A DNA stretch of 64,000 nucleotides from Verrucomicrobiota bacterium (GCA_012517205.1 JAAYVL010000103.1:2413-66412), one strand, 5' to 3'. Positions 17,210-59,929 are shown, numbered from the stretch's first letter. Notes: generated by a model not told the origin, from the letters alone. A program made the numbers and translations.

Positions 17210-17306
17210 CCGTGTACAAGGGGTGTACAAGGGATGCCCATCGGGAGTCCATAGGATTTTAGCTGGTACATCCGGTGAGCATCCCTTGTACACCCCTTGT
17301 ACACGG
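17210..17306 (-). repeat. Iteron hairpin element, copy 1 (GTGTACAAGGG x2 arms)
   Basis: Left arm: CCGTGTACAAGGGGTGTACAAGGGATGC at 17210-17237. Right arm: GCATCCCTTGTACACCCCTTGTACACGG at 17279-17306. The loop motifs run in the opposite sense to copies 2-4. Confidence 0.9.
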
Positions 17307-17740
17307 CCTGAAGGCAGGGTAAATCCAAGGGGTCTGGGTAGTGAATCTGGATGCCGGAAAAGGCCGAAATCGCGGGGCGGAACGGGAGGTTGAACTCCAA
17401 GCTGCGAAAAAACCGCCAGTTGTGAATCTTTGGCGGATATGAGCGAGATTTCCGAGGGAATCAGATCGCCCGGAAATCGCCCGGCTTAATAAGTGGCTGA
17501 TCCGAAGCGACTTAGCTGGAGGCTTCCATCGCACGCCATCGTTCTATCGAAATCCATTCCACCGCTCCCTGTATGTGTAAACCATTGATTTTATAGTCGA
17601 ACGGTATTTTGGATTTAATGTTTATGCCGTTGAATTTGCTAAAAAAGAGGGTTGCCGGAGCCACGGTCTGGGCGGCCTGGGCTGATCAGGCTCTGATGGA
17701 ACGGAGGCAGGCAGTTGAGCATTTCTCCTGAATCGTTCCG
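17307..17740 (+). repeat. Conserved flanking module M, copy A-right (inverted relative to A-left, with about 200 bp of extra internal sequence)
   Basis: It starts CCTGAAGGCAGGGTAAATCC, compared with CTTGGAGGCAGGGTAGATTC in A-left. The core at 17577-17665 is GTAAACCATTGATTTTATAGTCGAACGG...GCCGTTGAATTTGCTAAAAAAGAGGGTTGCCGGAGCC. The end ...GGCAGTTGAGC...CTGAATCGTTCC matches the other copies. Confidence 0.7.
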
Positions 17741-17962
17741 GCTAAAGGTCCTTGAAGCTGGCAAAAACCATGCGTGACCCTTGCCGGGCTGAGCGAGTGG
17801 GGGTTAACCGCCGCAGAATCAGGGAAAAATCTTCGGGGCACCGTCCCGTCCAGCCCTAATACAGCATGTCCCAAGCCGGGGCAAAGCCAGCCGGGAGGAA
17901 ACCGTCTCGCAGGTCGTCAGAGTTGGGCCGCGGCGGGCCTCTGGAAAACGCCTTCTGTCAGT

Positions 17963-19267
17963 TCAAAAGCGCGCCCCCACCGTCAGCATTACGGCGTGGC
18001 TGAGGAAATCGTAAGTGCCATCCGCCCGTTCGCCGGAGCTCAAGGCGGGCTGCGAGGAGGGTTTGCTGCCGGTGACCTTGTGGCTCGGGCCGTAGCCGAA
18101 TTGATAGGCCAGGTCGAAATTGTAGCGCTTTCCCCGGAACCCGCCGCCGATGCTGAAAAAGTGCCGGTCCAGGTCCGCCGCCAGCGGGGTGTAATAGGCG
18201 TTCGGCACGGAGTTCTCGCTAAAGGCGTAACCGGCGCTCAGATGCCAGCCGGGCTCGAAGTATCGAGTCACGCCAAAGGAGTAAATCCAACTGGATTGCC
18301 AGTAGAGTTTGACATCCACGTTTCTGGAAATGGGATACGGCGGGGCGGGCGATTGGTAGAGCGTGGTTTTGCCAAAGCTGCTCCACTCCGTGTAATCCGC
18401 GTTAAACTCCAGGTTCCATTTCGGGGTGGGCCGGTAGGAAATCCCCACCACGGCCGTTAAGGGGAAGTCCAGTTCCATGTGCGCCGAGCGCCGTCCCTGC
18501 TTGATGTTCGGCTGGCGCAAAAAGTCCGTATTTCCCTCCAGTTTCACCGGGGCTGCACCGCGAAACGTTGCGCCCAGCGAGAGTTTCCTATGCGGCTGGA
18601 AAAGCACGCCCAGGTTGTAACTCTCGCTCCAGCCATCCCCCTTAAAGCGGAAGTAATCCTTCAAAAGCGGGCTGAGCTTGCGCAGCCCCTGCTCCATTTC
18701 CAGGTCCACGTAATTGATCATCAGGCCGCCGCCCAGCGACAGCCAGGACGCCGGCCGGAACGCCACCACCGGGTTGATGGTCGCGTAAGTCAGCGAGGCG
18801 TCCGTGGCGATCGAGCGGAAACCCGTGTTCTGCGGCCAGCTTATGCTGCCGCCATACGGCGCATAAAGCCCCACGCCAAAGCTCAGCGGCCAATCCCGGG
18901 GCGTGTAAGTGGCAAACCCCTGGGGAACCGCCGCCCAGGAATCCTTGATATGATACGTATTGGTGCGGCCTGGCCCGGGCGGCGTAAAGCGCGGCTCGTA
19001 GTAAAGCCCGCTGATTCCGCCCCGGAAGTTGAGCCCCTCAAGCTGGGTAATGCCCGCCGGATTGTAGAAAACGGCCGAGGCATTGTCGGCGGTGGCAACG
19101 AACGCCTCCCCGCGCGCCGTCGCAAAGGCATCCTGGCCTCCCAGCCGGAAGCCGTTGGCCGGGGCCTCCAAGGCCCAGGCCCCCCACAGCAAAACCGTCA
19201 GCAAACCGGAAATCGTCCGCCGGTTATTGATCATAGTCAGTCCAGTCAAATTAGCACGCCGCCTCAC
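17963..19267 (-). CDS. Outer-membrane beta-barrel transport protein, OMPP1/FadL/TodX family
   Basis: A signal-like N-terminus is followed by GFRLGGQDAFATARGEAFVATADNASAVFYNPAGI and a terminal aromatic ...TVGARF. The start may be MINNRRT at 19234. Confidence 0.8.
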   Translation of the reverse strand: MRRRANLTGLTMINNRRTISGLLTVLLWGAWALEAPANGFRLGGQDAFATARGEAFVATADNASAVFYNPAGITQLEGLNFRGGISGLYYEPRFTPPGPGRTNTYHIKDSWAAVPQGFATYTPRDWPLSFGVGLYAPYGGSISWPQNTGFRSIATDASLTYATINPVVAFRPASWLSLGGGLMINYVDLEMEQGLRKLSPLLKDYFRFKGDGWSESYNLGVLFQPHRKLSLGATFRGAAPVKLEGNTDFLRQPNIKQGRRSAHMELDFPLTAVVGISYRPTPKWNLEFNADYTEWSSFGKTTLYQSPAPPYPISRNVDVKLYWQSSWIYSFGVTRYFEPGWHLSAGYAFSENSVPNAYYTPLAADLDRHFFSIGGGFRGKRYNFDLAYQFGYGPSHKVTGSKPSSQPALSSGERADGTYDFLSHAVMLTVGARF

Positions 19268-19876
19268 CTAAACACGGAACGCCCCCCCAGACAAGCAGGT
19301 TTCCTGCCGCGCCGGCCGGAAAACCTGCCACTCAGAGCCAATCCCGCTCGCCGCACTCCTTTGGATTGCCATCGCTGCGCTCCCTTGCCCCGGGGCTTGC
19401 GGCCCCGCGGGCGCTTCGAGGCCTGCAAACTGCGCCGCTGGCAAGGCGGCGGGGCAGTTTTTCGGAGCCGCGCTTGGCTTTCTGGCTGCCTTATGCTTGC
19501 CGCTGGCGGGACAAGGCGGTACGCTGGAGCCGCATAAAGCAAAACATGCGGGCGTGAGTGGCATCGAGAGAAAGAGTGACTCGACGAATGCGGCGGATGC
19601 CCATTATAACGGGCCGACGGGGCAGGTTCCATACAAGGAACTGGCCGAGGTGTTCAAGGCTTCGAGGGTGCGCGTTCGGGACGGGGACGCGCGTGAGCCA
19701 AGCGCGGGATGATCTGCGCGCACGGGGTTGCGCCACCATGCGGAGTATCTTTCGGATGGGAATCGCGGTTCGCGCGCCCGCTCGCGCCAGGCGCTGCGTG
19801 GGCGAAGTGGGCGCAGCGGGTCTGGATGCTATCGTAAGGCAAACACCGCCAAACTTCGGGCAAACAACGAAATCCT

Positions 19877-21391
19877 ATGAGCGCAGAGAACCCGGCAGCC
19901 AGCGAGAACACAAAACAGACCACCGCCTGCAGTCGGCGCGACGCCCTCAAATTCCTGGGGGCGGCCACCGCCGGACTGGCCGTGGCGGCAGCGCCGCCGG
20001 CAATGGCCGCCGCCGGCCCCGCGAAAGGGGCGAATCCCGATGGCGGCGCCCCTGGGAGAGGCATCAGTCGTGAAACGCTGAGCTCACGCGGGAGCGCACA
20101 AGGCGGCATCCTGCCCGTCAAATACGAGGTGGCGGTCTGCGGCGGAGGCCCGGCCGGCCTGATGGCCGCGATTGCCGCCGCGCGAAACGGAGCCAAAACC
20201 ATTCTGATCGAGCGGTATGGCTTTCTGGGCGGGATGGCCACGCAGTCATTGGTCAGCCCGTTAAGCGTATTTAACAAAAACCGGAAAAGGATTATCGGCG
20301 GGATTCCGCTGGAGTTTGCCGAACTGATGGAGACGCTCGGAGGCGCGGACACCACTTACCCGTCCGGGAACATTCACTTTGATCCGGAGATTTACAAGCT
20401 TGCCGCCCAACGAATGGTCTTTGCATCCGGCGGGTCGCTGATTTTGCATTCCTATATTTCCGGATGTCTCAGGGAGGGGGATGGAAATGGCAGAATCACG
20501 GGCATTGTGATCGAGAATAAATCAGGTCGGCAGAAAATCGAAGCCCGGTATTTCATTGACTGCACCGGCGATGCGGACGTGATAAAGTTTGCGGGTCTTC
20601 CGTATGTGATGGGGGACGGCGAAAGCCATGAACTGCAGCCCATGACGCTGTGGTTCAGGCTCGGCGGAGTGGATACGGACCGGCTTGAGAACATGGAGAT
20701 GCGAGAAAGCGGCAAGCGCCACGTCAATTCCCGCATCCGGGACGCGCTCCTCAAGCTGGGGAACGAGGCCCCGGTGCCTCAATTTGGCGGCCCGTGGATG
20801 TTCACAACTTTCCGAAAAGGAGAAGCCTCCGTAAATATGTCGCGCTATGCCGGGAACGGAACCGACGTGCTCAGCCTGACCCAGGCGGAATGCACTTTGC
20901 GCGAGGATGTCTTCAAACTGGTGAAGCTGTTGCGGGAGCACTTCCCGGAATTCAAAAACGCCTACCTTATTGACACCGGGACGCAGGTGGGAATCCGGGA
21001 AACCCGGAGAATCACCGGCTTATACGAGATGACCCTGGATGACATCATGGCCCCGAAGGATTTCCCGGATACCGTGGCCAAAGGCGGCCATCCTGTGGAT
21101 ATACACAAAGCGGGGAGCCGGGAGCAGGATCTCAGGGCAGTCAAAACCGGCTACAATATACCTTACCGATCCATGATTCCTGTGGGATCGGACAACTTAA
21201 TTGCCGCCGGAAGGCCGATCTGCGCGGCCCGGGAAGCGTTTGCCTCAATCCGGGTGCAGGCTACCTGTATGGCCCTGGGGCAGGCGGCGGGCACGGCGGC
21301 CGCGTTGTGCCATCAAAAGGATATTCCGGTCCATAAGCTGGACGGCGCGGAACTCAACGGCATTCTGCGCAAGCAAGGCGCGGTGGTATAA
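19877..21391 (+). CDS. Tat-exported FAD-dependent oxidoreductase (FAD_oxidored family)
   Basis: Twin-arginine-like leader: SRRDALKFLGAATAGLAVAAAPPAMA. Dinucleotide fold: YEVAVCGGGPAGLMAAIAAARNGAKTILIERYGFLGGMAT. Confidence 0.8.
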   Translation: MSAENPAASENTKQTTACSRRDALKFLGAATAGLAVAAAPPAMAAAGPAKGANPDGGAPGRGISRETLSSRGSAQGGILPVKYEVAVCGGGPAGLMAAIAAARNGAKTILIERYGFLGGMATQSLVSPLSVFNKNRKRIIGGIPLEFAELMETLGGADTTYPSGNIHFDPEIYKLAAQRMVFASGGSLILHSYISGCLREGDGNGRITGIVIENKSGRQKIEARYFIDCTGDADVIKFAGLPYVMGDGESHELQPMTLWFRLGGVDTDRLENMEMRESGKRHVNSRIRDALLKLGNEAPVPQFGGPWMFTTFRKGEASVNMSRYAGNGTDVLSLTQAECTLREDVFKLVKLLREHFPEFKNAYLIDTGTQVGIRETRRITGLYEMTLDDIMAPKDFPDTVAKGGHPVDIHKAGSREQDLRAVKTGYNIPYRSMIPVGSDNLIAAGRPICAAREAFASIRVQATCMALGQAAGTAAALCHQKDIPVHKLDGAELNGILRKQGAVV

Positions 21392-21596
21392 AACCGGAGC
21401 CACAGCCGCACCCTCCACCGGCTGGCCCTGCCGGCATACTGTTGCCCCGATCCGCCCCTTCCGCCAATCATCGAGGAACTTAACCGCCGCCCAACCCGCA
21501 GCCTCAACCTCCCTGGCTCATGATCCGCAAAGCAAAGGACCCGGCGCCAACAGGCAAGCTGTCGAGGCCCGCGCCCGCAATCGAAGGCGGGTTGCG

Positions 21597-22487
21597 TCAG
21601 GAACTGGCGCTGGTATAGCGGCGCATGGAAAAGCGCCAGCCCAGCTCGGATACGGCGAAGCAAACCGCGCTCATGCCCAGCAAAAGGAGCACGGGGCCAG
21701 GTGAACTGAGCTTGTCGGCCAGCAGGCGGACGGGCACGTTGGAAACGAGCAGCATCGGCAGGGCGAAAGTGAACAGGGCTTTAAACAGGCCGCCGAAGGC
21801 TTCGTCAGGCAGGCGGGCCACGTTGAAGAGATTGTAATAACCCCAGACAATGCCCTGGGCGCGCACGGTCCAGAAGCTGATGCTGGCCAACAGAAACATC
21901 AGTGAGTAGTGAATCATCACGCCCGCGGCGCAGAGCGCCAGGAAGCCTGCGATCTGCCCGGCTGAGGGCGCCAGCTGCAACTGGCGCGCAGCGTAGATCA
22001 TCACGGCGATGGCAGAAGCGGCGTTGACGAACGCGCCCAGGTCCACTTGCCGGAGCGACACAACAAAGCGTGTGTTGACCGGCAGCAGCAGCAGAAAATC
22101 GAGTTTGCCGTTGCGCACCAGCTCCGAGAGATTGGTGCAGTTAATCAGGAAGAAGGCCTGGAAAATCTGTTGGACGAAGTGGCTGGCGCCAATCAGCAGC
22201 ACGACCTGCCACTGGGTCCAAGTGCCGATGTGTTCCGTGTGCAGGTAGAGCACGCCGATAAAGCAAAGTTGCATGGCGAACCAAAGCAGCTCCACCAGAA
22301 TCCACAGCAGGAAGTTGGCCTTGAAACTCATCTCGCGCGCAACCGAGTTTTTCCAGAGCGCGGCATAGACTCCGCAATACCGGAGCGCCGGGCGGAAAAG
22401 CCGGGAAAAAGAGGGGGAGGCGGGAGGGGGCGGGCGCGTGCCGACGCCGCTTCTTTCGGGTTGGGGATTGGGACTGGTGGGTTTCAT
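21597..22487 (-). CDS. ABC-2 family transporter permease (DUF990-like)
   Basis: 296-aa polytopic ORF placed immediately after its paralog, with a 1-nt gap. Confidence 0.7.
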   Translation of the reverse strand: MKPTSPNPQPERSGVGTRPPPPASPSFSRLFRPALRYCGVYAALWKNSVAREMSFKANFLLWILVELLWFAMQLCFIGVLYLHTEHIGTWTQWQVVLLIGASHFVQQIFQAFFLINCTNLSELVRNGKLDFLLLLPVNTRFVVSLRQVDLGAFVNAASAIAVMIYAARQLQLAPSAGQIAGFLALCAAGVMIHYSLMFLLASISFWTVRAQGIVWGYYNLFNVARLPDEAFGGLFKALFTFALPMLLVSNVPVRLLADKLSSPGPVLLLLGMSAVCFAVSELGWRFSMRRYTSASS

Positions 22488-22488
22488 T

Positions 22489-23295
22489 TCATCCTCCTAC
22501 CGCGGAGTAATGCTTGATCCCGCGCCGCCATGCGAACCGCGCCGCGCCGTACGCCGCGATTACCCAGGAAGCCTGCACCAGCAACCCGCGAAGAAGGTCC
22601 ATGCCCGCCGCTTTGCCGATATAAACACTCACCGGGAAATAGAGTTGGTAGGGAAACGGGGTGAAATAGAGCGCCTGCTCCAGGCCGCGCGGCAGGATGT
22701 CCAGGGGGAAAAGGTGTCCGCTGGCAATATATTCGAACGCGTACAGGATGAAAATAAACGTGGAGACCTCCAGCACCCAGAAGGCCAGCATGGCCATCGC
22801 GTAAGACATGAAAAACTGCAGCAGGGCCGTCAACGCCGTGGAAAGGAGGAAGGCCGCGAGCGCAACTCCGTCCGCCGGCGGCTCCAGGTACGAACGGAAG
22901 CACGCAAAAAAGAGCGCCAGCGGGATGAACGCCACGGCCAGGTAGGTCAGCCGGCCCGACAGGTACAGGCATAGCCGGTACCAAAGGTAATCAATCGGTT
23001 TAAGCAGGAGTTGGCTGATGTTGCCGTCCTTGATATCCGCCGCGATTAACCAATCGTCCTCGTTCACCGCCGTCAGCGCATCCACCACGGTTATGAGCAG
23101 GTAATACGAGATCATTCCAGCCAGGGAATAGCTGCCGACGCTGGTTCCGGCGCCCTTGCCCGCGTAAATCTTCTGCCACACGTATAACATGGCGATGAGC
23201 GGGACCAGGCCAAACAACGCGCGGGCCAGGAAGTTGAATCGGTACGTCAGGCTGTTCTGAATCCCAATATTTATGACGTGCCAGTATTTTTTCAT
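22489..23295 (-). CDS. ABC-2 family transporter permease (DUF990-like)
   Basis: MKKYWHVINIGIQNSLTYRFNFLARALFGLVPLIAMLYVW is typical of the N-terminus of this permease family. No ATPase gene lies upstream. Confidence 0.75.
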   Translation of the reverse strand: MKKYWHVINIGIQNSLTYRFNFLARALFGLVPLIAMLYVWQKIYAGKGAGTSVGSYSLAGMISYYLLITVVDALTAVNEDDWLIAADIKDGNISQLLLKPIDYLWYRLCLYLSGRLTYLAVAFIPLALFFACFRSYLEPPADGVALAAFLLSTALTALLQFFMSYAMAMLAFWVLEVSTFIFILYAFEYIASGHLFPLDILPRGLEQALYFTPFPYQLYFPVSVYIGKAAGMDLLRGLLVQASWVIAAYGAARFAWRRGIKHYSAVGG

Positions 23296-23408
23296 CCACG
23301 CGCAGCAGGAGCGTATCGCAGGGGGAGCCGATTGGGAAGCGCCGATTCAGGCTGGCCTTTTTTCTCCGGCAAGTCATGATTTGCCTCATCGCCGGATACC
23401 GTAAAACT

Positions 23409-23879: not shown

Positions 23880-23921
23880 CGAGGGAGTTGCCGCCGCGGA
23901 AAAGACGACTACACTCGCCGC

Positions 23922-32196: not shown

Positions 32197-32303
32197 CCCC
32201 CAAGCCTGCTCCTCCTTCTGGCCTATTCCGCCGAAATCGTGGAGGAACCGTCATTCCCAACCTAACCTCCGCCATTTCAAGCTATTCCATAGCTACCGCC
32301 TGG

Positions 32304-32411
32304 CCGTGTACAAGGGGTGTACAACGGGTGTACAACGGATGCTCACCAGATGTACTATGGAAAATCCTTTGTACACCCGTTGAGCATCCGTTGTACACCC
32401 CTTGTACACGG
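32304..32411 (+). repeat. Iteron hairpin element, copy 2 (three units in the left arm)
   Basis: Left arm: CCGTGTACAAGGGGTGTACAACGGGTGTACAACGGATGCTCACC at 32304-32347. Loop: AGATGTACTATGGAAAATCC. Right arm: TTTGTACACCCGTTGAGCATCCGTTGTACACCCCTTGTACACGG, ending at 32411. Confidence 0.9.
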
Positions 32412-32655
32412 CGTAGGGGCAAGGTATGTCCGGGCTGCGTTCGGGGTAAGCCGAAATCGGCATGATTCTGCCTCTATTTTATTCATCTTCACACCTAAAC
32501 TATTGATTTTACAGGCGAAAGGCTCGGGGTTCAGCAGCCACGCCCTTGAATTGGTTAAACACAGAGTTCGCCAGGGCTGCAGTTTGGGCGGTCAGGCCCG
32601 GTCAGACTCCAATGAAACGAGGGTGGGCGGTTGAATTACCCAACTGAAGCGTTCC
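32412..32655 (+). repeat. Conserved flanking module M, copy B
   Basis: Homologous by eye to the reverse complement of 16962-17209 and to parts of 17307-17740. The core is at 32495-32580. It ends ...GGCGGTTGAATTACCCAACTGAAGCGTTCC. Confidence 0.8.
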
Positions 32656-46529: not shown

Positions 46530-47180
46530 TTTTAGGCGCGCCCGCACCTGCTCAGTGCTGCGCGGGTGAGGGAGAATTGGTTTTTAAGCTCACCAGGCAT
46601 GTGGCGAGCCTTGCGGGAGCCGGTGGCGGTGCCAATGCCCGTTGTTCGCTTTATTCGCGGTAATTTTCGCCCATTCCTGGGTGTAGTCGCCGGGGTTTGG
46701 GGGCGCAGCGTATGGCGGGGCGGAGATCGCGACGGGAACGCCCGGCGCACGGGCGCGCCCCGCTCCGAGCCGGGTGGATGATGCGGCAGTTTGAGCGGCG
46801 GCGGCGGGGAAATGCCGGGGCGGGGCAACGCCAGTTCGGGCGGTCGGCCGCACTGGCGCACACCGCGCATCTTGTTCGAGCACCACCCGTAGTAGCGGGT
46901 TATCTGGGCACCTTTGCCGAGAACGTGCCAGGTGGCGCGGCGCAACCCAGCATGAATCTTCAGCCCCAGGCTCAACGTGGCGCAACCGGTTGAGAACCAT
47001 CTGGCGGGAGCCCTGGCCCCTTGGAAATAGGGCCTGACCCATGCCTTTATGGAGGGGCTCAATAATGTGTTCAGTGCCGTCAAAAGTAAGGCCTACGGCT
47101 ACCGCCCCACCGTCTGACTCCTCTTCAAGCTCCACCTGTTGGATGGCAAACTCTGTATCCCCCACACTTGATTCCACTCA
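46530..47180 (-). pseudogene. IS91-family (Y2 rolling-circle) transposase C-terminal remnant with multiple frameshifts
   Basis: Fragments appear in different minus-strand frames. They are GLTFDGTEHIIEPL, then HVLGKGAQITRYYGWCSNKMRGVRQ (the RYYGW.SN..RG motif typical of the Y2_Tnp C-terminus), then DYTQEWAKI. No intact ORF remains. Confidence 0.45.
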
Positions 47181-47305
47181 AAACGCAGAGAAATCGTCCG
47201 AAAACCAACAAGTATCTGAAAAGAAGCAAGTTATAAATGCGACGACTTCGGCAATCCCGAAGCCAACCATTGCCAGCACCTAAGTCTCTCCTCCGTTATT
47301 TCAAG

Positions 47306-47401
47306 CCGTGTACAAGGGGTGTACAACGGATGCTCAAGGGAAGCTCAAGGAAAAAAAGCATGTTCACCCGGTGAGCATCCCTTGTACACCCGTTGTACAC
47401 G
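47306..47401 (+). repeat. Iteron hairpin element, copy 3
   Basis: Left arm: CCGTGTACAAGGGGTGTACAACGGATGCTCA at 47306-47336. The loop contains CAAGGAAAAAAAGC. Right arm: GGTGAGCATCCCTTGTACACCCGTTGTACACG at 47370-47401. Confidence 0.9.
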
Positions 47402-47506
47402 ACCTATTGGCAGCACTGAAGTGGCTGGGAATGCTGGAGATGACGCAAAGGCGGGGGTAATGGCGTTGCGGGGGAGAGTAGCTGCCAAAAGGGAAGGCCC
47501 GGAATG

Positions 47507-47548: not shown

Positions 47549-48324
47549 TCAGGTATCGAAGGCGGAGAAGAGGTGGCGGAGTTCTTCCTCGATTTTCTCC
47601 CGGGAGGGGACGGTGCGGGCGGTTTCGGCGTGCGGGATTCCGCGGCAACGGGTGCGCAGGCTGGGGACGGCCATTTTCACCACGGGCGCGGTGAGGTTCA
47701 GGCGGGCGGCGATCCCGGCGTAAGGCCGGGCTGACTCTCCCCGGGCCCAACAGCTTTGTGGAGACTCGAACCGCCTGGCCCGGCCAGAGGCCGCCCACCC
47801 TTCCTGCAACTGCGCCATAGCGTCCTGGAGCAGAGTCATGGCCCATTGCCGGTCAAAGAGCAGGCCGGGCTGGATGTTGGGCGAGGGGTCAGCGGCAAAG
47901 CGGGATTCGGCGAACTCCAGGTCAATGGCGGTTATCCGCGCAAAGCCGCCGCGCTTTTGTGCGCGTTGGCGGTCTCATTCATTAGCCAGGAGCCGTTTCC
48001 AGACCAGCAGGAGGAAGGTGCGAAGCTTGCCCTTCGCTCGCGCCGCTACCTGCAGGCAGTCTTTCTGCAACCGGTGGACGAAGGAGCCTGGGCAAGGTCC
48101 CGCGCGCCCCGGGGCGCATGGCCGTGCCGCCGCCGGAAGGCGCAGAGGGGGTGTCCGCAAGCGCGGCAAAGCGTCTCGAGCGCAGTGGCCGACCTGGGCA
48201 TGTCTTTTTCGCGCGCCGGGGGCACGACCGTCCAGTGGATGGGGGTGAACCAGGCGTCTGAAGCGGGCAGCGGTGCGGGGGCGACGGAACTTCCGCCCGC
48301 GGCGGAGGGACTTGCGCGGCTCAG
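47549..48324 (-). pseudogene. ECF-type sigma-70 factor (plancto/verruco type) pseudogene: one TGA at a conserved Trp position and one 1-nt frameshift
   Basis: The minus strand reads ...THWTVVPPAREKDMPRSATALETLCRACGHPLCAFRRRHGHAPRGARDLAQ. A frameshift near 48086-48094 leads to GSFVHRLQKDCLQVAARAKGKLRTFLLLVWKRLLANE. After the TGA at 47975-47977 it continues DRQRAQKRGGGFARITAIDLEF...LFDRQWAMTLLQDAMAQL...YAGIAARLNLTAPVVKMAV...EEELRHLFSAFDT. No ATG or GTG start is left. Confidence 0.7.
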
Positions 48325-51300
48325 TCTGATTCAGGAGGCCGGGCTGGCGGCGGGTTCGTGTTGTTGGCGTTGGAGTTCTCCGGGAAAAGCCCTCGCAAGG
48401 TGCGCAAGGGCCGGAACGGGAACAGGAAGGGCAGCGTGACCACTTTCGGAACCAGGTAAACCGGATCGCCCTTTGGGGCCCCGAGCGTGCCGGTGATTTT
48501 ATATTCAAACAGCTTCGTCACCGGCCACAAGACGGTGCTGACGAGCGGGCCGACCAGCCAGGCGTCGCGCAGGAGCTCGGCTTCCGCGCGGGCGTTGACC
48601 TGGCCTTGAAAGTCCAGGGTGCCGCGATACTGGAGGCGCATCCCGGTCGAGCGGATTTCCAGGTCTTCCGACGAGATTACGCCGTTGGTAATGCCGAATG
48701 TGCAACGGCCGGCGCTGGCCCGGCTGTTGCCCAGCCCCGGCACCACGCTGTTGAGCGCCTGGGAAAAGAGGCCAAAAATGGGAACGTCCCAAATCAAGCC
48801 GTTCCGCAAAGTCAGGTCGCCGGAGCCGGTCCAGGTGTTTATATCCGCGGTGTTGGCGCGGGTGATGGCCAGGGTGCCGTTAAGCCGGCCGTCGAGATGA
48901 TTGGTCGCGAGGAATAAATCCGTCACGAGCGGCGGCAGGAGCGCGTTCGTGGCCGTCACGGTAAACTGGTAGTCGGCGTCGTGTCCGGGATGAAAGTCGA
49001 ATTGCGCGGAGCCGTGAACCTGGCCGCCATAGCAGCCCGCCCAGATATTGCTCAGGGATAAATGCTGTCCCAGCCAGTGCACGTGGCCGGAGATCTCCGA
49101 CGCCCGGAGCCGCCACCACGTGAAGGCACCGCCGCGCAAGTCAAAGTGCAAATCGGCATCATCCTCCCCGTGCATCGGGATGATGCCCCAAACCCGGGCG
49201 ACCGGCGGCTGGGCGAATTGGTAGGGATGAATCACCCGGGCGACGTGAGGGCCGATGGCGCGCGCGATGGCCAGGGGGTCCCCGGTGCTGAAACCATTGG
49301 AGAGGTAGATTTTCTGCGCCGCAAAGTCGGCTGTGACGGCATCGGCGCTGAGCCGTTCGGCGCCGCGCCCGAGGCGGGGATCCGTGAAGTGCAGCAGGTG
49401 ATTGGTGTATTGGAGGGCCGTCTGCAAATAGCTGGCGGACTCGCCCCGGAAGGTGAAATTGGTCAGTGCCACCCGGCCCTGGAGGCCCGTCCGCCGCGGT
49501 TCGTCCCAGCGCCCCCAAACCCGGGCGTCAATGACAGGCGGCTCGGCAAAGGTAAAGAAGCGGAGCGCGCGCTGCAGATCGGGGGCCAGCAGCGGGCGCA
49601 AATCCAGCACGTTCACCGAGCTATGCAGGCGGCCGTGATACTCCCGGGTCCGAAGATCGGTTTCCACGGCGGCCTCCAACTGTCCTTCGGGCCGGATGAT
49701 TCGCAAGTCCGGCAGGCGCCAGACCTGGTTCGAGCAGGAAATATGGGATTGGACGGCGGAAACCGCCACGCCCTGGCAGGCGAGGCCCCGGGCAAAGTTG
49801 AGATCAGCCTGCAAGCGGAGCGTCGGCAGCACTTCCGCCCGCCAGTCGGGCTGACGATTCGTCCAGGCGGGCCAGACCAGCGAGGCTTCGCCGGCCACGG
49901 TCGGCGGCGTTTCCCAGGCAAGCCGCGCCAGCCAGTCGCCGGCCGCTCCGGTCAGGAGTGGCGAAAGCTCGTGGGGATCAATGCTCGAAGTAAAGCGGAC
50001 GCGCGCCCGGCGGGTGGATACGTCCACGTCGCCGCGCCCGCCGAGCGGCTGCTGCGCGAGCGCGGCCTGAATCCGGGTGAGCGCCAGCGTGGGCGCGCGC
50101 CATTGCCCGGCGCAGGCGACTTCGCGCAGGCGTAGTTGAGACGATTGCAACGTGTCCGCGCGGCCCTCCCAGTCCAGCGCATAAGGTTCGAGCGCCGCCC
50201 ATCCGCCCCAGGATTCATCGGCGCGGAGCGGCCGATCGTGGCCGGGCATCGCGAGGCGGGCGTTGATTTGCAGTTCCCGCGCAGTGGCCCATGAGTTGGA
50301 CGCCTGGGCGCAATGCAGGCTGGCCGTGCCGGACAGGGGCTGGAAATCGGCCCGCGAGTGCATCCATTGGGCGCGGAGGTGCGCGTTGGTGGCGCCGCCC
50401 CAGCGGGACGCGGCGCGCGCCACGGTGAGGACCGCATCGGTGGTGGCCAGGTTTGTCTGGCCCGCGATCGCGTCCGCCTGAAGGGCGAGCGTCAGGTGCG
50501 CGGCGCTCGCCCAGGAGGAATCTGCGCGCTCGGCACACAAGGTCAGTTCGAGGTTTCCCCAGTTGGTTAGCGACGCGAAAGCGGCCAGCCGGGCATTCAG
50601 GCTCAAATTCGTCGCCGTCGCCCAGCGCGTTTGCGCCCCGCCGGCTTCGAGGTTCAGCTCGGCGTGGGAGAGGTCATTGGTTGCCGCCGGGAAAAGCCGG
50701 GCATTCACCCGGCCCCGGACCAGGCGGCCCCAGGGCGTGTGGGCCTCCGGGGTGTTCAGCAGCGCATGGATGGTGAAACTGTGGGGAACGCGCGCGTCGC
50801 CCCGGACATCGAGTTTGAACTCCGGCGGGGCGGAGAAATGGATGCGTTCCAACACCTCCGCGATTTCGCCGGGCCAGTTGCGCCGCGGGGCGCCGGCCGG
50901 GGCCGGTTCCGCCTGAAACGCCGTCCAATGGCGCACGGCGGAGGCATTGGTGACCGTGCCGGACAACCGGATTTTAGCGCCGGCGAAAACCGCCGTGAAG
51001 TGATCCAGCGCCCATTCATCGCCGGGCAGGAACCGGAGTTCGGACTGGATCTGGTCAAGAACCAACTGCCGCGGGGCCCGGTGGGTTTCCGCGACGGGCC
51101 AGACCAGGCGGCCTTTGCGCAGCCGGAGCGCGTCCGTCTGGATTTGGAGCCGGGCGAGCGCCCGCAGATTGAGGCGCACCTGGACTTGCGCGAGCGTCAG
51201 TTGCGGGCTGAGGGGGGCGTCGGGGCGCACGAAGCGGACGTTCTCCGCGACGATGCCCCGATACCAGCTCAGGCGCAGGCGGGAGAATTGCAGATCCAGG

Positions 51301-53272: not shown

Positions 53273-53280
53273 GCGCGCGC

Positions 53281-54768: not shown

Positions 54769-54770
54769 GG

Positions 54771-55520
54771 CTATTTCCAGCGGCGGCTTTCCACCACCCG
54801 CAAAGTCAGAAAGAGGAAAAGAAAGGTCGCGCTGGCGAGCAGCACCACGGCCCGCGTATCCACAATGCCGCGCGCGAAATCGTGCATCTGCTCGAACAGG
54901 GCCAGGCTGCCCAGCACCTGCGTCTGCCAATCCTCCTGCGCCGGAAGCTGGCTGGCCAGGTATCCCAGCAGGAAAACGCTGGCGCCGAAGCCCAGGCTGA
55001 TCATGGCCGCGACCGCCTGGCTGCGCGTGAGCGCCGAGGCGCAGCAGCCCCAGGAAAGGAACATGCCGCCATACAACAGGATGCCCAGGAACGTGCTGGC
55101 CGCCACGCCGGCATCCAGCGCGCTGGGATCGTTGGTTTGGTGGCGCACCACCAGCAGGCAGCCCAGGAGCGGCAGCCACATCACCAAATAGAACAGCAGG
55201 GCCGCCGTGAACTTGGCCGCCACCACCTGCCCATCGCTGACCGGCGTGGTCATGAGCGTTTCAAAGGTGCCGGTGAACTTTTCCTGCGCGAACAGCCGCA
55301 TGGTGATCACCGGCGTGGTCAGCAGCAGGATCAGCCAGAAGAACGGGGTGATATAAAACAGCTCGGTGATGGGCATCGGCGTCGGCTTCTGCAGTTTGGC
55401 GAGAATGACGATGAAGCTGTAGCCCATCAGGAACAGCGCCGCCGCGATGATGATGTAGCCGCCCAGGGACAGGAAAAACCCCGCCAGCTCCCGCCGCACC
55501 AGCGTCCGGAAAACGAGCAT
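54771..55520 (-). CDS. ABC-2 type permease (GldF-like)
   Basis: The start MLVFRTLVRRELAGFFLSLGGYIIIAAALFLMG at 55520 shares 1 nt with the ATPase stop (TCAT on the plus strand). The protein is polytopic. Confidence 0.8.
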   Translation of the reverse strand: MLVFRTLVRRELAGFFLSLGGYIIIAAALFLMGYSFIVILAKLQKPTPMPITELFYITPFFWLILLLTTPVITMRLFAQEKFTGTFETLMTTPVSDGQVVAAKFTAALLFYLVMWLPLLGCLLVVRHQTNDPSALDAGVAASTFLGILLYGGMFLSWGCCASALTRSQAVAAMISLGFGASVFLLGYLASQLPAQEDWQTQVLGSLALFEQMHDFARGIVDTRAVVLLASATFLFLFLTLRVVESRRWK

Positions 55521-56479
55521 CAACCCTCCTCCTCCTCCGGCCGGGTGACCCGGACGTAGATGTCTTCGAGCGAATGGCGGCTGCGGGTCAGCTCGCGCAG
55601 CGGCCAGCCCCGCTCCCGCGCCAGCGCAAAGATTTGCGGCCGCAAATCCACGCCGTCGCGCGGCGTCAGCGCGCAGCGGAAATACTCGCCCTCGGCCGGG
55701 GACACGTCGAACTGCTCCACCTCCGCCATCTGCGCCCAGCATTCCCGCAACTCCTCGGGCGCCGCGGCGATCTCCGCGATCACCTGGCTGCGGCTGCTCA
55801 TAAGCTTTTGCAGGTTCCCCGGCGTATCGGCCACCAAAATGCGCCCGTCATACATGATGACGACCCGGTGGCAGGTCATTTCCGCCTCGGGCAGGATATG
55901 GGTGGAAATCAGCACCGTATGGGCGCCGCCCAGCCCCTTGATGAGCTGGCGGACCACGCGAATCTGGTTCGGGTCCAGCCCGATGGTCGGCTCGTCCAGG
56001 ATGATCAACTCCGGCTCATGGACCAGGGCATCCGCCAGCCCCACCCGCTGCCGGAACCCCTTGGAGAGCTGCCCGATCATCCGCCGGCTCACCTCGGTCA
56101 GCCCGCACTGCTCCATGACCACATCCACGCGCGCGCGCGAATGTTTGCGGCTCAAACCTTTCAGCCGGGCCCGGAACTTCAGGTATTCCCGCACCCGCAT
56201 GTCATAGTGCAGCGGGTTGTTCTCCGGCATATACCCGATGCGGCGGCGCACTTCGTCGGATTGCGCAAAAACATCCAGCCCGGCCACCCGCACGGTGCCG
56301 GAAGTCGCCGCCAGGTAGCAGGCCAGGATGCGCATCGTGGTGCTCTTGCCCGCCCCGTTGGGGCCCAGCAAACCCACGATTTCGCCCCGCCTGACCGAGA
56401 AGGAGATGTCCGAAACAGCCGGATTGCCCGCGTAGCGCTTGGTCAGGTTGGCGACTTCGATCATCAAGTCATCGCTCAT
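55520..56479 (-). CDS. ABC transporter ATP-binding protein (GldA-like)
   Basis: Walker A is GLLGPNGAGKSTT, the signature is LSKGFRQRVGLA, and Walker B is LIILDEPTIGLD. Confidence 0.9.
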   Translation of the reverse strand: MSDDLMIEVANLTKRYAGNPAVSDISFSVRRGEIVGLLGPNGAGKSTTMRILACYLAATSGTVRVAGLDVFAQSDEVRRRIGYMPENNPLHYDMRVREYLKFRARLKGLSRKHSRARVDVVMEQCGLTEVSRRMIGQLSKGFRQRVGLADALVHEPELIILDEPTIGLDPNQIRVVRQLIKGLGGAHTVLISTHILPEAEMTCHRVVIMYDGRILVADTPGNLQKLMSSRSQVIAEIAAAPEELRECWAQMAEVEQFDVSPAEGEYFRCALTPRDGVDLRPQIFALARERGWPLRELTRSRHSLEDIYVRVTRPEEEEG

Positions 56480-56553
56480 TGAGTCCAGCTCAGGAGAATA
56501 ATCTAGTTCAGACCCGCGGGGCTAAGCCAACAAAATCGGCGGCGTCCGCCGCG

Positions 56554-57954
56554 CTAGCGCGCCACCAGCTCCACCGTGGCCTGCCGCAGCACATTGAAGT
56601 TCCCCATCCGCTGCGGCACGGCGATTTCCATCTGCACCCGGTCGCCTTTCTTCCGGGCGTAAAGCCCCTTGGCCACCGCGCAAACATCCATCGGCAGTTG
56701 CCCGTCCAGGGCGGTGATCAGGATGCCGCGCTGCAACCCCGCCGCCGCCGCCGGGCTGTCCTCCTGCACCCCGGCGATGTAAAACGCATCCGCAACCCCC
56801 ACCCCATAGCGGGCGGCCAATTGCGGCGTCAGCTCCTCCAGGTCCAGCCCGAGCTTGTCGCGGATCATCCCGGCGTTGAAAACGGTCTTCTCCGGCACCA
56901 GCCGCACGGTGACCTCCTTGCGCTCCGTCCCCCGCTGAATGGCCAGCGTCACGCCCGAACCCGGCCGAGCCGCCAGCAGATCGGCAAAATCAATGAAACT
57001 CCGGGGCGCCCGCCCATTGACCTGGCGGATCGCGTCGCCCGCCCGCAAACCCGCCCGCCCGGCGGGGCTTTGCGGCTGCACACTGGTGATGACCAGCGGC
57101 GTCGTGCCCACCTTGACCCGCGCGCCGAACCAATAGGTTTTGACAAACTCCGTCGGGAAAATGTCCGCCAGGGACTCCAGCACGCGCCGGATGGGGATGG
57201 CAAACCCGATCCCCTGCGCGCGCTGCCCCATGACCTCGTTCAGGACGGCGACATTGATGCCGATCAGCTCGCCCCGCAGGTTGACCAGCGGGCCGCCGCT
57301 ATTGCCCACGTTGATGGGCGCGTCGGTTTGCAGCCAATTCGGGATGTCCAGCGGCACGCCTTCCTTGGGCAGCACCCGGCTCTTGGAGCTCAGAATGCCC
57401 CGGCTGACCGAGCCGCCCAGGCCAAACGGGTTGCCCAGCGCCACCACGGTTTCCCCCAGCAGCAAATCATCCTCGCGGGCAAACTGGATGGCCGCAAACT
57501 TTTCCCCCGGCCGGCTGTTGAGCTTGAGCAGGGCCACGTCGCTCTTCGGGTCGCTGGCGACGACGCTGGCCGTGTAAACATTGGTTCCCGTGCAGAACTT
57601 GATGGTGATCTTATCGGCCCGCCGCACGACATGGTCATTGGTGAGCAAGTAGCCCTCCTCGTCAATAACCACCCCCGAACCGAGGCTGTACTGCGAGTTG
57701 GGCGGCTGCCGGCGGTGATACGGATCCCAGAATTGCCGAAAGAACTCCTCGAAGGGATCGCGCACGCGGATGAGAGTCTCGGTGGCGATGTTCACCACGC
57801 AGGGAATGGCCTTCTCGACAGCCTGCACGGTCGCGTCCCGGCGGACATCATCCGGCGCGGTTTGCCCGATGACGCCGCAACTGCCGGCGCACAACACCCC
57901 TGCCCACCACCAAGCTCCCAGCCGCCGCCGGCTCTTACTTGTTTGCTGATTCAT
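56554..57954 (-). CDS. HtrA/DegP-family periplasmic serine protease with two PDZ domains
   Basis: This is the real part of track ORF 56554..59052. The start MNQQTSKSRRRLGAWWWAG is at 57954. The triad context is TNDHVV, DVALLK and GNSGGPLVN, followed by two PDZ-like segments. Confidence 0.85.
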   Translation of the reverse strand: MNQQTSKSRRRLGAWWWAGVLCAGSCGVIGQTAPDDVRRDATVQAVEKAIPCVVNIATETLIRVRDPFEEFFRQFWDPYHRRQPPNSQYSLGSGVVIDEEGYLLTNDHVVRRADKITIKFCTGTNVYTASVVASDPKSDVALLKLNSRPGEKFAAIQFAREDDLLLGETVVALGNPFGLGGSVSRGILSSKSRVLPKEGVPLDIPNWLQTDAPINVGNSGGPLVNLRGELIGINVAVLNEVMGQRAQGIGFAIPIRRVLESLADIFPTEFVKTYWFGARVKVGTTPLVITSVQPQSPAGRAGLRAGDAIRQVNGRAPRSFIDFADLLAARPGSGVTLAIQRGTERKEVTVRLVPEKTVFNAGMIRDKLGLDLEELTPQLAARYGVGVADAFYIAGVQEDSPAAAAGLQRGILITALDGQLPMDVCAVAKGLYARKKGDRVQMEIAVPQRMGNFNVLRQATVELVAR

Positions 57955-58107
57955 ATCTATAATAACCACCAACCCCCGCGCGGGTTGCGCCTCGCCTCGC
58001 CGCTCGGCTCCAGCCGGCCCCCGCCGCCGCGCCGCCCGGCGCCCGGGAGCCGCCGCGCCGCTCAAAGCTTGACTTTGCCGTCCCACCCGCGCAAAAGCAA
58101 GGGCAAG

Positions 58108-59547
58108 GTGCTTTCGGCGCAAGCCAGCTTTTATGCCCGGTGGCGCGTGCGGTGCGGAGTCGTCTCCGACCTGCGCGAGGAACGGGACTCGCCGCCCGAA
58201 CAGCTCCTGCAATCCATCTGGCAGCACCAGCGGTTGCTCCGCGAGCAGCTCAAAACCTTGGACGGCCGCCCGGTCCGGATTCTTCATCCCGGCTTTCGCA
58301 GCGTCGAGGGCGGGCCGGATTTCCGCGGCGCGGTCGTGCAATTCGGCGATCGCCCCCCGCAAAGCGGCGATGTGGAGGTGGACCTGCGCCCCCGCGGCTG
58401 GCGCGCTCACGGCCACGACCGCAACCCCGCCTTTCAGCGCGTCCTGCTCCACGTGGTCTGGGAAGACGGCCCGGCCGCGCCCGGCGCGCCGCCGACCCTG
58501 GGGCTGCGCCGGGCGCTGGATGCCCCGCTGGGCGAGCTGAGCCTGTGGCTGGGCGGCGAGGCCGCGCCGGGACTGCCGGAAACGCTGCGCGGCCAATGCT
58601 GCGCCCCGCTGCGCCAGCTTTCCCCGGCGCGGCTGACGCGCCTGCTGCACCAGGCGGCGCGGGTGCGCCTGCAAAGCAAGGCAACCCAATTTCAAGCGCG
58701 CGCCCGGAGCGCCGGCTGGGAACAGGCGTTGTGGGAGGGGCTCTTCCGCGCTTTGGGCTACAAACACAACTCCTGGCCCATGCTGCGCCTGGCCGAACTG
58801 CGGCCCCGCTGGCAGACGCCCGGCGCGCCGCCGTTCGCCTTGCAGGCGCGCCTGTTCGGCATCAGCGGCCTGCTGCCGGCCGAGCTGCCCCGCGCCCCCG
58901 CGGGCGGCAGCCGCTACGTGCGCCAAATCTGGGACTTCTGGTGGCGCGAACGCGACGCGTTCTCCGACTGCCTCCTGCCGCACACCCTGTGGCGCCTGCA
59001 CGGCTCGCGCCCCGCCAACCACCCGCTGCGCCGCCTCGCCCTGGCCTCCCAATGGCTGCGGGATGACCGCCTCGCGCCGAAACTGGAAGCATGGTGCCGC
59101 CGCGAAGTGCCGGCGGCGGCTCTGCCCGATTCACTGCTGGAGACGCTGCCCATCGAACCGGATGAGTTCTGGTCCTGGCATTGCACTTTCCGTTCGCCCC
59201 GCCTCCGACGGGCGCAGCCGCTCCTGGGCGCCGCGCGCATGACGGATTTGGCGGTCAATATCCTCCTGCCCTGGCTCTGGATGCGGGCGGCCGAGGGCGG
59301 CAATGCCCGGCTGCAGCACGCCCTCGAACAGCGCTATTTCTCCTGGCCGCCCGCCCAGGACAACTCAGCCCTGCGCCTGGCCCGGCAGCGATTGCTGGGC
59401 GGCGCCACCCCGCGCGCCCTGCCCGGGGCCGCCGCGCAACAGGGCCTGTTGCAAATGGTGCGGGATTTCTGCGACCACTCGAACGCCATCTGCGACCACT
59501 GCCAACTGCCGAAACTCGTGCAGGACTGGATGGCCGAGGACCCATAA
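58108..59547 (+). CDS. DUF2851 family protein
   Basis: This is the real 3' part of track ORF 56479..59547. PEQLLQSIWQHQRLLREQLKTLDGRPVRILHPGFRSVEGGPDFRGAVVQF matches the DUF2851 N-terminal pattern. The start is uncertain, either the GTG at 58108 or the GTG at 58147. There is no in-frame ATG. Confidence 0.65.
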   Translation: MLSAQASFYARWRVRCGVVSDLREERDSPPEQLLQSIWQHQRLLREQLKTLDGRPVRILHPGFRSVEGGPDFRGAVVQFGDRPPQSGDVEVDLRPRGWRAHGHDRNPAFQRVLLHVVWEDGPAAPGAPPTLGLRRALDAPLGELSLWLGGEAAPGLPETLRGQCCAPLRQLSPARLTRLLHQAARVRLQSKATQFQARARSAGWEQALWEGLFRALGYKHNSWPMLRLAELRPRWQTPGAPPFALQARLFGISGLLPAELPRAPAGGSRYVRQIWDFWWRERDAFSDCLLPHTLWRLHGSRPANHPLRRLALASQWLRDDRLAPKLEAWCRREVPAAALPDSLLETLPIEPDEFWSWHCTFRSPRLRRAQPLLGAARMTDLAVNILLPWLWMRAAEGGNARLQHALEQRYFSWPPAQDNSALRLARQRLLGGATPRALPGAAAQQGLLQMVRDFCDHSNAICDHCQLPKLVQDWMAEDP

Positions 59548-59832
59548 GCCCGGTGCCGGAATAAGGACGTTGACCTTTCGACCCCTCCGCGCCGGGAAAA
59601 CGAATACCCCAGCCCATTCCGACTTCCCGGCAACCTGAACCCCATAACCTCGGGAATATGCTCCCTCCCGAACCGGACGCCCAACTGTGCCAATTTGGCA
59701 CACCTCAGCCTCGACAGCAGCGCCCCATTGACCCTCTCGTGCGAGCCACTTTCGGGTAGCTCCTACAAACCATTCCATTTCCGCCAGCATCTTCATTCCT
59801 GCCAAAACCCCTGCTTTTCCCGTCCCAATTAG

Positions 59833-59929
59833 CCATGTACAAGGGGTGTACAAGGGATGCTCACCGGGTGAACACGGAAAAATCTGATGTGCATCCGGTG
59901 AGCATCCCTTGTACACCCCTTGTACACGG
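59833..59929 (+). repeat. Iteron hairpin element, copy 4 (best preserved)
   Basis: Left arm: CCATGTACAAGGGGTGTACAAGGGATGCTCACCGG at 59833-59867. Spacer: GTGAACACGGAAAAATCTGATGTGCAT, 27 nt. Right arm: CCGGTGAGCATCCCTTGTACACCCCTTGTACACGG at 59895-59929. The arms are complementary at 34 of 35 positions. Confidence 0.95.

Follow-up and report, generated by a model that had tools for sequence, protein, structure and literature searches.

The four hairpins in the 64,000-nt stretch of Verrucomicrobiota DNA analysed here (the window) are conserved cores inside larger composite non-coding repeats, and not free-standing elements. The original prediction of autonomous elements of about 100 bp was not borne out, as copies of the hairpin, which we refer to as H, are internal to larger repeats, most of which look like miniature transposons (MITEs). 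As a repeat family H is new, though of a kind already familiar, and it does not amount to a new kind of system. To the more specific reading, that H is the conserved apical core of non-autonomous, non-coding foldback repeats (MITE- or BIME-like) in a clade of the Verrucomicrobiota, we give about an even chance.

Design of the hairpin core

The window contains four hairpins of approximately 95 nt built from 11-nt units, and its sequence agrees with the original prediction in the four copies, their coordinates and their overall plan:

17210–17306, no strand assigned: H copy 1, with an extended stem at 17186–17330 (unit matches, inverted repeat, folding)
32304–32411, no strand assigned: H copy 2, a 106-nt variant in which one arm has one additional 11-nt unit
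47306–47401, no strand assigned: H copy 3 (unit matches, inverted repeat)
59833–59929, no strand assigned: H copy 4 (unit matches, inverted repeat, folding)

There are 18 matches to GTGTACAAGGG with at most one mismatch in the window, versus 0.49 expected, and every one of these lies within the four H copies, while Tandem Repeats Finder reports a period-11 array for each arm of the H copies. The plan consists of four diverged 11-nt units (TGYWCAMSGGR), followed by a short loop and then by these four units in inverted form, starting with 5'-TG and finishing with CA-3', with two phased half-sites per arm, and each arm of the window copies has a TGTACA-N5-TGTACA layout. The sites of H always come as an inverted pair whose complementarity extends well beyond them. 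The arms of copy 4 were confirmed as 35 nt with one mismatch, and the inverted repeat is longer than first described, reaching 45 nt in copy 4 and 59 nt in copy 1. The predicted arm plan holds overall but not for the inner arms, which deviate in copy 1 (left, ATGCCCATC), copy 2 (right, GTTGAGCAT) and copy 3 (left, ATGCTCAAGG). Single strands of H fold with z-scores of −8 to −17 versus shuffled sequences, and as RNA the hairpins have an extremely high predicted stability (−86 to −120 kcal/mol). The motif CTCCG..ATTTCAAGC noted in shared left flanks is real, and is part of a recurrent flank motif C(A/T)TCATTTCC. The polarity ascribed to the loops likewise exists in the sequence, but it has no constant relation to the flanks, as the interior is found both ways round in the same carrier.

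Larger repeats carrying the hairpin

The carriers are 434–786 bp long (about 460 bp for type C), have no coding signal and are present in dozens of copies per dataset. In the window the following parts were delimited:

16957–17742, plus strand: type A carrier holding copy 1, a 786-bp non-coding element with terminal inverted repeats (TIRs), with ends GCCGTCACGATTCAG... and ...CTGAATCGTTCCGGC
16956–17128 and 17569–17743: imperfect long TIR of type A ('module X')
16954–16956 and 17743–17745: TAA target duplications of the type A carrier of copy 1
32412–32655, minus strand: the half of a type A element on its X side, to which copy 2 is joined
about 32200–32303: other flank of copy 2, belonging to an unrelated flank family
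47199–47445, plus strand: type B repeat unit around copy 3, approximately 250 nt, common to three copies from the DAOPPX01 genome
47506–47523, no strand assigned: P1 palindrome GTGTCCAATAATTGGACA, a module that accompanies H, near copy 3
59683–60116, no strand assigned: type D composite unit around copy 4, 434 nt, in the order P2 - H - P1 - P2'
59683–59704 and 60095–60116: inverted palindromic 22-mers bounding type D (AACTGTGCCAATTTGGCACACC and GGTGTGCCAATTTGGCACAGTT, respectively)
59968–59985, no strand assigned: P1 palindrome GTGTCCAATAATTGGACA within the type D unit

The type A family has the TIR GCCGGAACGATTCAG and a TWA duplication of 3 bp; the TWA on one side matches that on the other exactly in six of approximately ten independent complete copies, the window copy among them. 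The copy 1 element is missing at the orthologous site in a related genome (L156), where the intergenic region between the FadL and LPG-synthase genes is 194 nt versus 1297 nt in the window, with a boundary which is not base-clean, since approximately 290 nt more also differ. Copies 1 and 2 have 342 nt in common because both derive from one MITE family, and with one flank from half a type A element and the other from an unrelated family, copy 2 is a chimera. The copy 3 locus has a syntenic ortholog (L021). Type C carriers have the TIR GGGCGCATCTCA... and crisp ends, with 9-bp target site duplications (TSDs) in 4/5 copies. The type D architecture is repeated in three other loci (L119, L122 and L100), and as type D has no clear target duplication, it may be a palindrome mosaic and not a transposon. 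All P1 sites (53/53) and P2 sites (23/23) in 1.2 Mb of loci are within 450 nt of an H.

One and the same core thus occurs in two or more carriers whose TIRs are unrelated and whose TSDs differ in length (3 bp versus 9 bp). The distance from the hairpin to these other TIRs and target duplications is 140–500 nt in at least two carriers, and therefore the H arms are not the transposed termini there; the earlier reading of the arms as a protein-binding array fits with regard to the boxes, but in these carriers not with regard to arms as transposed termini. No empty site was found for H alone, and there was no direct target duplication beside it, the immediate flanks being inverted (GCCG/CGGC) and not direct. 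A candidate empty site for copy 4 proved to be a synteny break, with each relative having a different gene after DUF2851. Insertion of H into the tips of existing palindromes was rejected, as the 1.2 Mb of loci did not contain GCCGGC-centred empty palindromes resembling the H flanks, nor were GCCGGC-centred palindromes enriched there over those centred on other CG-centred hexamers. Copies 1 and 2 have independent insertion or recombination histories, and the four copies are not fragments of a single duplicated segment.

Like the Correia elements of Neisseria and the ERIC elements of enterobacteria, the carriers are small, dispersed, non-coding, multi-copy and intergenic units with long hairpins, with TIRs (types A, C and D), target duplications (types A and C), and presence or absence between relatives, as with the L156 ortholog. 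They differ from these MITEs in that the internal hairpin is conserved across families and not the termini, in that the core is made of 11-nt tandem units, and in that carriers with unrelated TIRs share one core, without a known parent insertion sequence.

Distribution of the family

More than 150 H copies were recovered from Verrucomicrobiota metagenome-assembled genomes (MAGs) and metagenomes. The loci number at least 33 from genomes and at least 114 from metagenomes, and almost all of them come from MAGs of Verrucomicrobiota; all copies external to the window were found with a pattern requiring one intact arm. An nhmmer search for decayed copies gave a single diverged locus (L095/L096). Many copies are on contigs of 1–3 kb, some of which are assigned to unrelated phyla. 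The expectation that the family is uncatalogued was upheld: scans of viral contigs, plasmids and phages gave zero copies, Rfam gave no match at the gathering score and only sub-threshold matches to generic miRNA-precursor-like hairpins at E≤10, and H falls outside the REP definition, which calls for a GTAG or CGTC tag on an imperfect palindrome of 20–40 bp (PMC3733652). Literature searches with the 11-mers returned primers only, and those on Verrucomicrobia and MITEs or foldback elements did not include a description of H.

Linked genes and nested insertion sequences

A gene for a cognate protein linked to a copy, which the original prediction proposed to look for, was not found near the H loci, where the only recurrent neighbours are large PVC paralog families (GFO/IDH/MocA, N_methyl, PATR, ECF sigma and FGE-sulfatase). 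Searches for an autonomous element with H-type ends or an H-linked transposase gene were negative, and the 1.2 Mb of loci did not contain an autonomous insertion sequence with the carrier TIRs. The type C TIR loosely resembles that of an IS256-like element, and the 9-bp TSD of type C fits the IS256 family. Other insertion sequences have repeatedly inserted at H, with IS21 in the loop in L020 and IS256-like elements in L131, L080 and L004; these, together with the IS256-like element in L058, are inside or abutting the repeat and were rejected as parent transposons, being nested insertions.

The genomes do contain Y1_Tnp genes, one of which is in the window (6697–7146, E 6.5e-22), with a 41%-identical paralog 0.9–1.1 kb from an H copy in four loci (L006, L067, L096 and L144). 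This raises the alternative that H is a REP/REPIN-type single-stranded DNA hairpin mobilised in trans by a Y1 (HUH-type) transposase of the IS200/RAYT family, which we consider unlikely. As in the REP, BIME and REPIN systems with RAYT of E. coli and Pseudomonas, H is a palindromic, intergenic inverted doublet with a hairpin of approximately 100 nt, forms mosaics with other small motifs and is a target for insertion sequences; its lack of direct target duplications would also fit, as would the flips described below, which imply that the hairpin forms. However, H has no GTAG/CGTC tag, and its arms are 35–45 nt of phased repeats, far longer than a REP. Moreover, the palindromes on either side of the window's Y1 gene belong to another family, and the Y1 gene in L067 has its own palindromes and is set off from H by an ECF sigma-factor gene.

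Readings of the copies as replication iterons or centromeres found no support: such sites are clustered at one locus beside rep or par genes and an AT-rich region, whereas the H copies are scattered over the chromosome and their surroundings lack rep and par genes. Integron attC sites have R and L boxes (GTTRRRY) and form same-orientation cassette arrays next to intI; H was rejected as an attC site, as its copies are single and dispersed, with no GTTRRRY core and no integrase nearby.

Constraint, inversion and mosaicism

The length of H varies in 11-nt steps only, with 109/118 copies of 95 nt, 8/118 of 106 nt and 1/118 of 84 nt. In 22 pairs of copies from the same locus, the two outer 22-nt boxes diverge by 0.6–0.8%, versus 7.5% for the centre, 6.8–7.5% for the stem extension and 7.6–8.2% for the flanks, making the boxes about 10-fold more conserved than everything else. 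Within H, resistance to divergence is confined to these outer boxes, TGTACAAGGGGTGTACAAGGGA with its inverse, which are separated by about 49 nt. The boxes could seem more constrained than they are because of the intact-arm search pattern in combination with possible conversion between arms. The original suggestion that the phased repeats are putative protein-binding boxes fits this box-only constraint.

The boxes could be putative operators for a host DNA-binding protein, spread by MITEs, with H serving regulation or chromosome organisation; candidates are a nucleoid-associated protein or an OmpR/PhoB-type response regulator. The latter bind hexamer-N5-hexamer direct repeats with an 11-bp period as a winged-helix dimer, and the TGTACA-N5-TGTACA layout on every arm would suit this, as would the confinement of constraint to the boxes, with stem interior and extension drifting at a neutral rate, and the presence of H in intergenic regions of all types. 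Nevertheless we regard this alternative as improbable, since, for the sites of one regulator, a density of four per 64 kb is high, the neighbouring genes have no common theme beyond their large paralog families, and the constant inverted doublet with its long complementary extension would be needless for an operator.

Among 20 unique type A copies the interior is flipped fully in four and partially in two, and L079 and L086 have common flanks with inverted interiors; apart from this pair, none of the same-locus pairs (0/90) was flipped. A fast phase-variable switch was rejected on this count, as was an inverton, which has inverted repeats enclosing a promoter, a recombinase of its own and both orientations in a population, since in addition the flippable interior of H is only about 27–49 nt and there is no linked recombinase. 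The predicted hairpin or cruciform at the DNA level is consistent with the interior flips and the exact 11-nt indels. Different flanks are joined at H, with flank families assorting independently (including X-H-X' forms), and synteny stops at H-containing elements. A small conserved repeat as the junction of variable modules and recombination site is also seen in the neisserial dRS3/NIME elements, although dRS3 is a 20-bp phage-integrase site, whereas H is without a linked recombinase. Eukaryotic Foldback (FB) transposons likewise have long inverted arms of short tandem subrepeats which fold back, vary in unit number and promote rearrangements, but the arms of FB elements run to hundreds or thousands of bp, and the likeness is one of design, with no homology implied.

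Gene context

The original prediction placed copy 1 beside the start of a phc-like operon, which is wrong, as its neighbours are:

15328–16665, minus strand: LPG_synthase_C-like gene, its start facing copy 1
17963–19267, minus strand: FadL/TodX-type outer-membrane protein gene, its stop facing copy 1

The position between convergent genes is correct for three window copies, but is not a family trait: by a crude gene calling, the 58 unique H sites are 36 tandem, 14 divergent and 8 convergent, equal to background, without preference for gene 3' ends or convergent genes. H is found in all kinds of intergenic region, including divergent promoter regions, and it lacks a U-tract as well as sites resembling terminators or promoters. 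With the lack of context preference, H does not fit an intrinsic terminator, in which a GC-rich hairpin precedes a U-tract at the 3' ends of genes.

H might act as RNA: in 3' or 5' untranslated regions so stable a hairpin would end transcription, shield mRNA ends or be a target of RNase III, roles reported for Correia, ERIC and REP elements. That H acts in such a way is very unlikely: the stability of the predicted hairpins, the three convergent positions in the window and the transition mismatches of copy 1, which are G·U in 8/8 cases on the minus strand, the strand of both flanking genes, speak for it, but copy 1 is a lone 8:0 outlier in a strand test of G·U versus A·C mismatches without overall asymmetry (68 copies without one-strand G·U excess, mean maximum fraction 0.68 versus 0.69 expected), and the missing terminator- and promoter-like sites and 3'-end preference, the flipping interior and the lack of an Rfam family speak against it.

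A model for the spread of the hairpin

In the reading that we favour, with H as the core of non-autonomous foldback repeats, the spread of H would be mostly passive, via amplification of the MITEs holding it; the best-documented transposition is that of carriers in which H is internal, and hence of the carriers rather than of H itself. As a near-perfect palindrome in many copies, H would form hairpins or cruciforms during replication, which would account for the flips, for slippage in 11-nt steps and for the continued complementarity of the arms, and it could recombine with other H copies in either orientation, which would account for the chimeras and the adjacent synteny breaks. Judged from sequence, the outer boxes are putative binding sites for a trans-acting protein, most likely a DDE-type (Asp-Asp-Glu) transposase because of the 5'-TG/CA-3' ends of H and the two phased half-sites per arm.

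It is doubtful that an undescribed foldback mobile system of bacteria has H as its active site. There, a trans-acting protein, not encoded beside any copy, would recognise the two phased 22-bp boxes on the extruded hairpin or cruciform and move, invert or recombine H, with H capturing the flanks that are joined; if so, several MITE families would have been seeded by H, which would also be a driver of rearrangements in this clade of the Verrucomicrobiota. If, on the other hand, only hitch-hiking and ascertainment bias are involved, H would be an ordinary MITE/REP-like family.

With H, a little-studied and uncultured lineage gains a repeat family that is both well delimited and abundant, and such repeats break assemblies and confuse binning. 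The fixed boxes amid drift, the single core in differing carriers and the reshuffled flanks suggest a DNA-binding protein, and the pattern of constraint points to one which may act sequence-specifically on the boxes. Together with this, our analysis suggests that H is a hotspot of recombination and rearrangement.

Four hairpins built from 11-nt units

The four hairpins of the original prediction were borne out, as was the plan ascribed to them, with coordinates as follows:

17210-17306: hairpin core (H), copy 1
32304-32411: H, copy 2
47306-47401: H, copy 3
59833-59929: H, copy 4
17186-17330: extended inverted repeat of copy 1, 59-nt arms

The motif GTGTACAAGGG, allowing up to one mismatch, has 18 matches in the window (0.49 in shuffled sequence), every one inside the four H copies, and each arm contains period-11 arrays according to Tandem Repeats Finder. 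The predicted inverted repeats are likewise present, with arms that had been put too short and reach 45 nt in copy 4 and 59 nt in copy 1, while single-strand folding of the H regions is well above that of shuffled sequences (z −8 to −17). Read in 11-nt register, an arm contains a single unit, TGYWCAMSGGR, repeated four times in diverged form, the two outermost copies forming the outer box (TGTACAAGGGGTGTACAAGGGATGC); the units are clearest in the type C copy from another genome, which reads TGTACAAGGGG TGCTCACCGGA TGTACACCGGA TGCACAAGGGG, TTTT and the inverse units. Both outer arms could be recognised in 118 copies; the core is 95 nt long in 109 of these, 106 nt in eight (window copy 2 is this variant) and 84 nt in one, and it therefore changes length only by whole units.

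Constraint within H was compared in 22 same-locus pairs with diverged flanks.

Divergence within and around H in same-locus pairs
Flanks: 7.6-8.2%
Stem extension: 6.8-7.5%
Centre of H: 7.5%
Third unit: 4.5-7.4%
Two outer units, either arm: 0.6-0.8%

Across 82 unique copies, the outer units are invariant to 98% or more, the GCCG/CGGC foot of H is about 90% conserved, and the columns of the stem extension hold several Watson-Crick pair types (one column, for example, has GC 19, CG 15 and AT 14). All external copies were found with a pattern needing one intact arm, which together with conversion between arms, if any, would exaggerate the difference between the boxes and the rest, but this requirement cannot easily explain 0.7% in both arms at once.

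Carriers of the hairpin core

H is held within larger non-coding repeats, here called carriers:

Genome CAWGGD01: type C carrier, ~460-bp repeat with crisp ends, H ~140 nt inside
16957-17742: type A carrier of copy 1, 786 bp, ends GCCGTCACGATTCAG and CTGAATCGTTCCGGC, TAA on both sides
47199-47445: unit of copy 3, ~250 nt, three further copies in genome DAOPPX01
59683-60116: unit of copy 4, 434 nt, bounded by inverted AACTGTGCCAATTTGGCACACC

The type C carrier is a MITE with H internal; its TIR is GGGCGCATCTCA(A/G)..TTCTTGC, and 9-bp direct duplications flank four of the five copies (TTCCTGCCG, CCCAGCCGT, CCGCGTTGG and one imperfect pair at L007). Type A, the commonest carrier, is flanked left and right by the same triplet, TAA or TTA, in six of about 10 independent complete copies, the two triplets of the remainder being one base apart. 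The orthologous spacer between the FadL and LPG_synthase_C genes is 194 nt in CAZDOO01 versus 1297 nt in the window, and since both edges align, the type A carrier is present in one lineage and absent from the other, with an imprecise boundary because ~290 nt more differ. Copy 2 has 342 nt in common with copy 1 (76.6% identity) on one side only, and is a chimera because its other flank comes from a different flank family. The syntenic ortholog of the copy 3 locus, L021, has 81% nucleotide identity over 5.8 kb rightward, and this synteny ends at the left edge of the copy 3 unit. The copy 4 unit has the order P2 - H - P1 (GTGTCCAATAATTGGACA) - P2', where P1 and P2 are palindromes accompanying H; this order recurs at three further loci (L119, L122 and L100), and no target duplication was seen at the copy 4 unit. 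Every one of the 53 P1 and 23 P2 sites in 1.2 Mb of loci has an H no more than 450 nt away, and a search for H-less palindromes resembling the H flanks found none.

The type A flank beside H (17174-17201 in the window, and copies elsewhere) is also 11-nt periodic (ACCCTGGACAT ACCCTGAATCT ACCCTGCC...), with units similar to that of H in inverted orientation and one additional unit in some copies. Just upstream of the LPG_synthase_C-like gene, both genomes conserve TTGGCACC(C/G)GGAACGCTG (window 16666-16720; CAZDOO01 locus L156, 4940-4987), which resembles a sigma-54 -24/-12 promoter. A relative with a 70% identical FadL (P0123 contig, ENA ERZ1426824) has a spacer of 732 nt after fadL and a 150-aa Y1_Tnp gene two genes upstream of it. 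The copy 3 unit is adjoined on its left by a degenerate transposase C-terminus (...THAFMEGLNNVFSAVKSKAYGYRPTV*; 46842-47118, plus strand) with in-frame stops upstream, which we take to be ISL3-like and at which the L021 synteny breaks. The minus-strand gene to the right is a single 298-aa ORF in L021 and is split in the window by a stop codon at 47975-47977 (47552-47974 and 47978-48517), for which pseudogenisation, recoding or a sequencing error may be responsible.

Flips, mosaicism and nested insertions

With the type A flanks as reference, the interior of H is found in both orientations, there being four full and two partial flips with differing breakpoints among 20 unique copies; L079 and L086 have common flanks and inverted interiors. 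Flips are rare among close relatives (0/90 same-locus pairs). The flank on the side of X, the long imperfect TIR module at type A ends, is paired with its usual partner 24 times, with itself six times and with unique flanks five times, and the flank families of H assort independently.

Insertion sequences of other kinds are nested within H or the surrounding carrier. The H loop of L020 contains an IS21-family element (1300-3861; IstA 497 aa, IstB 248 aa), and one IS256-like element (transposase 418 aa; left inverted repeat GGTAGTGTCCTAAAAGTTCTGCAA; right inverted repeat, reverse complement, AGTTGTGTCCGTCAAGTTCAGCAA) lies inside or abutting H in L131 (from 12322), L080 (about 60-105) and L004 (about 230-275), and in the carrier in L058 (2440-3890). 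P1 looks like two abutted tips of the TIR of this element, to which the TIR of the type C MITE (9-bp TSD) also bears a loose resemblance.

Distribution

Scanning one genome per species gave at least 33 H loci, which among the matches listed are nearly all in Verrucomicrobiota MAGs; the few under other labels are on 1-3 kb contigs and most likely mis-binned. Metagenomes yielded at least 114 further stretches, with three records labelled activated sludge. H was absent from the viral contigs scanned, as it was from the plasmids of PLSDB and the phages of INPHARED. MAG GCA_035341455.1 matches the species of the window, and the nuoN/DUF2851 spacer is identical across four assemblies. Just one of the H-like hairpins found was strongly diverged; this hairpin, at L095 2502-2595 (one locus with L096 33-125), has other units (GTGTACAACGG GGGTACAAAGG AGGCTCAAAGG ...) in an unchanged 11-nt register. 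At 58 unique H sites, the distribution of intergenic contexts was the same as background (p = 0.26, crude gene calls). A linked gene for a cognate protein, envisaged in the original prediction, did not emerge, as no family recurs beside H except large paralog families.

A separate repeat family around Y1_Tnp

6697-7146, minus strand: Y1_Tnp gene, 150 aa, IS200-like (Pfam E 6.5e-22)
4293-4590, 6075-6711 and 7134-7390: palindromic repeat clusters around it (GCCCTTTCAGGGC, CCCAGGGCGTTGCCCTGGG, CGCCCCGTTGGGGCG)
4344-4388: Rfam Acido-Lenti-1 match
4861-5835 and 7421-8062, both minus strand: Eco57I/N6_Mtase-type restriction-modification gene fragments

Y1_Tnp was rejected as an H-flanked gene, the palindromes on both sides being of a different family; together with them it looks like a REP/RAYT 'REPtron'. 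The Acido-Lenti-1 match is one unit of these repeats, and this 'RNA motif' may therefore be a REP-like DNA repeat. The gene fragments lie either side of the cluster, as if it had disrupted a restriction-modification gene.

Nature of the element

H has a periodic foldback design, TIR/TSD-bounded carriage, orthologous presence/absence, mosaicism, flips and box-restricted conservation, and we place it among the MITE/BIME-like intergenic repeats. The boxes would be putative binding sites of a trans-acting protein, for which a transposase is the favoured candidate because of the TG...CA termini and paired half-sites; the palindrome may form hairpins during replication, and the copies may recombine with one another.

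Three other readings carry lower weight. The first is a REP/RAYT-type single-stranded DNA element; REPs are 20-40 bp with a GTAG or CGTC tag (PMC3733652). The second is a host operator spread by MITEs. With regard to the third, an RNA hairpin, transition mismatches showed no one-strand G·U bias over 68 copies (0.68 vs 0.69 expected), with copy 1 a lone 8:0 outlier whose minus-strand RNA is predicted to fold into an unbroken 55-bp stem, and no promoter-like or terminator-like sites were found around this copy. The Rfam search gave no family for H; at E<=10 the matches were confined to miRNA-precursor models below threshold, a sign of no more than a long hairpin.

As a MITE/BIME-like repeat, H is of a kind already well known. 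No described repeat family matching it was found, and compared with known elements of its kind it is unusual in conserving an internal core, not its termini, and in having that core made of 11-nt units.
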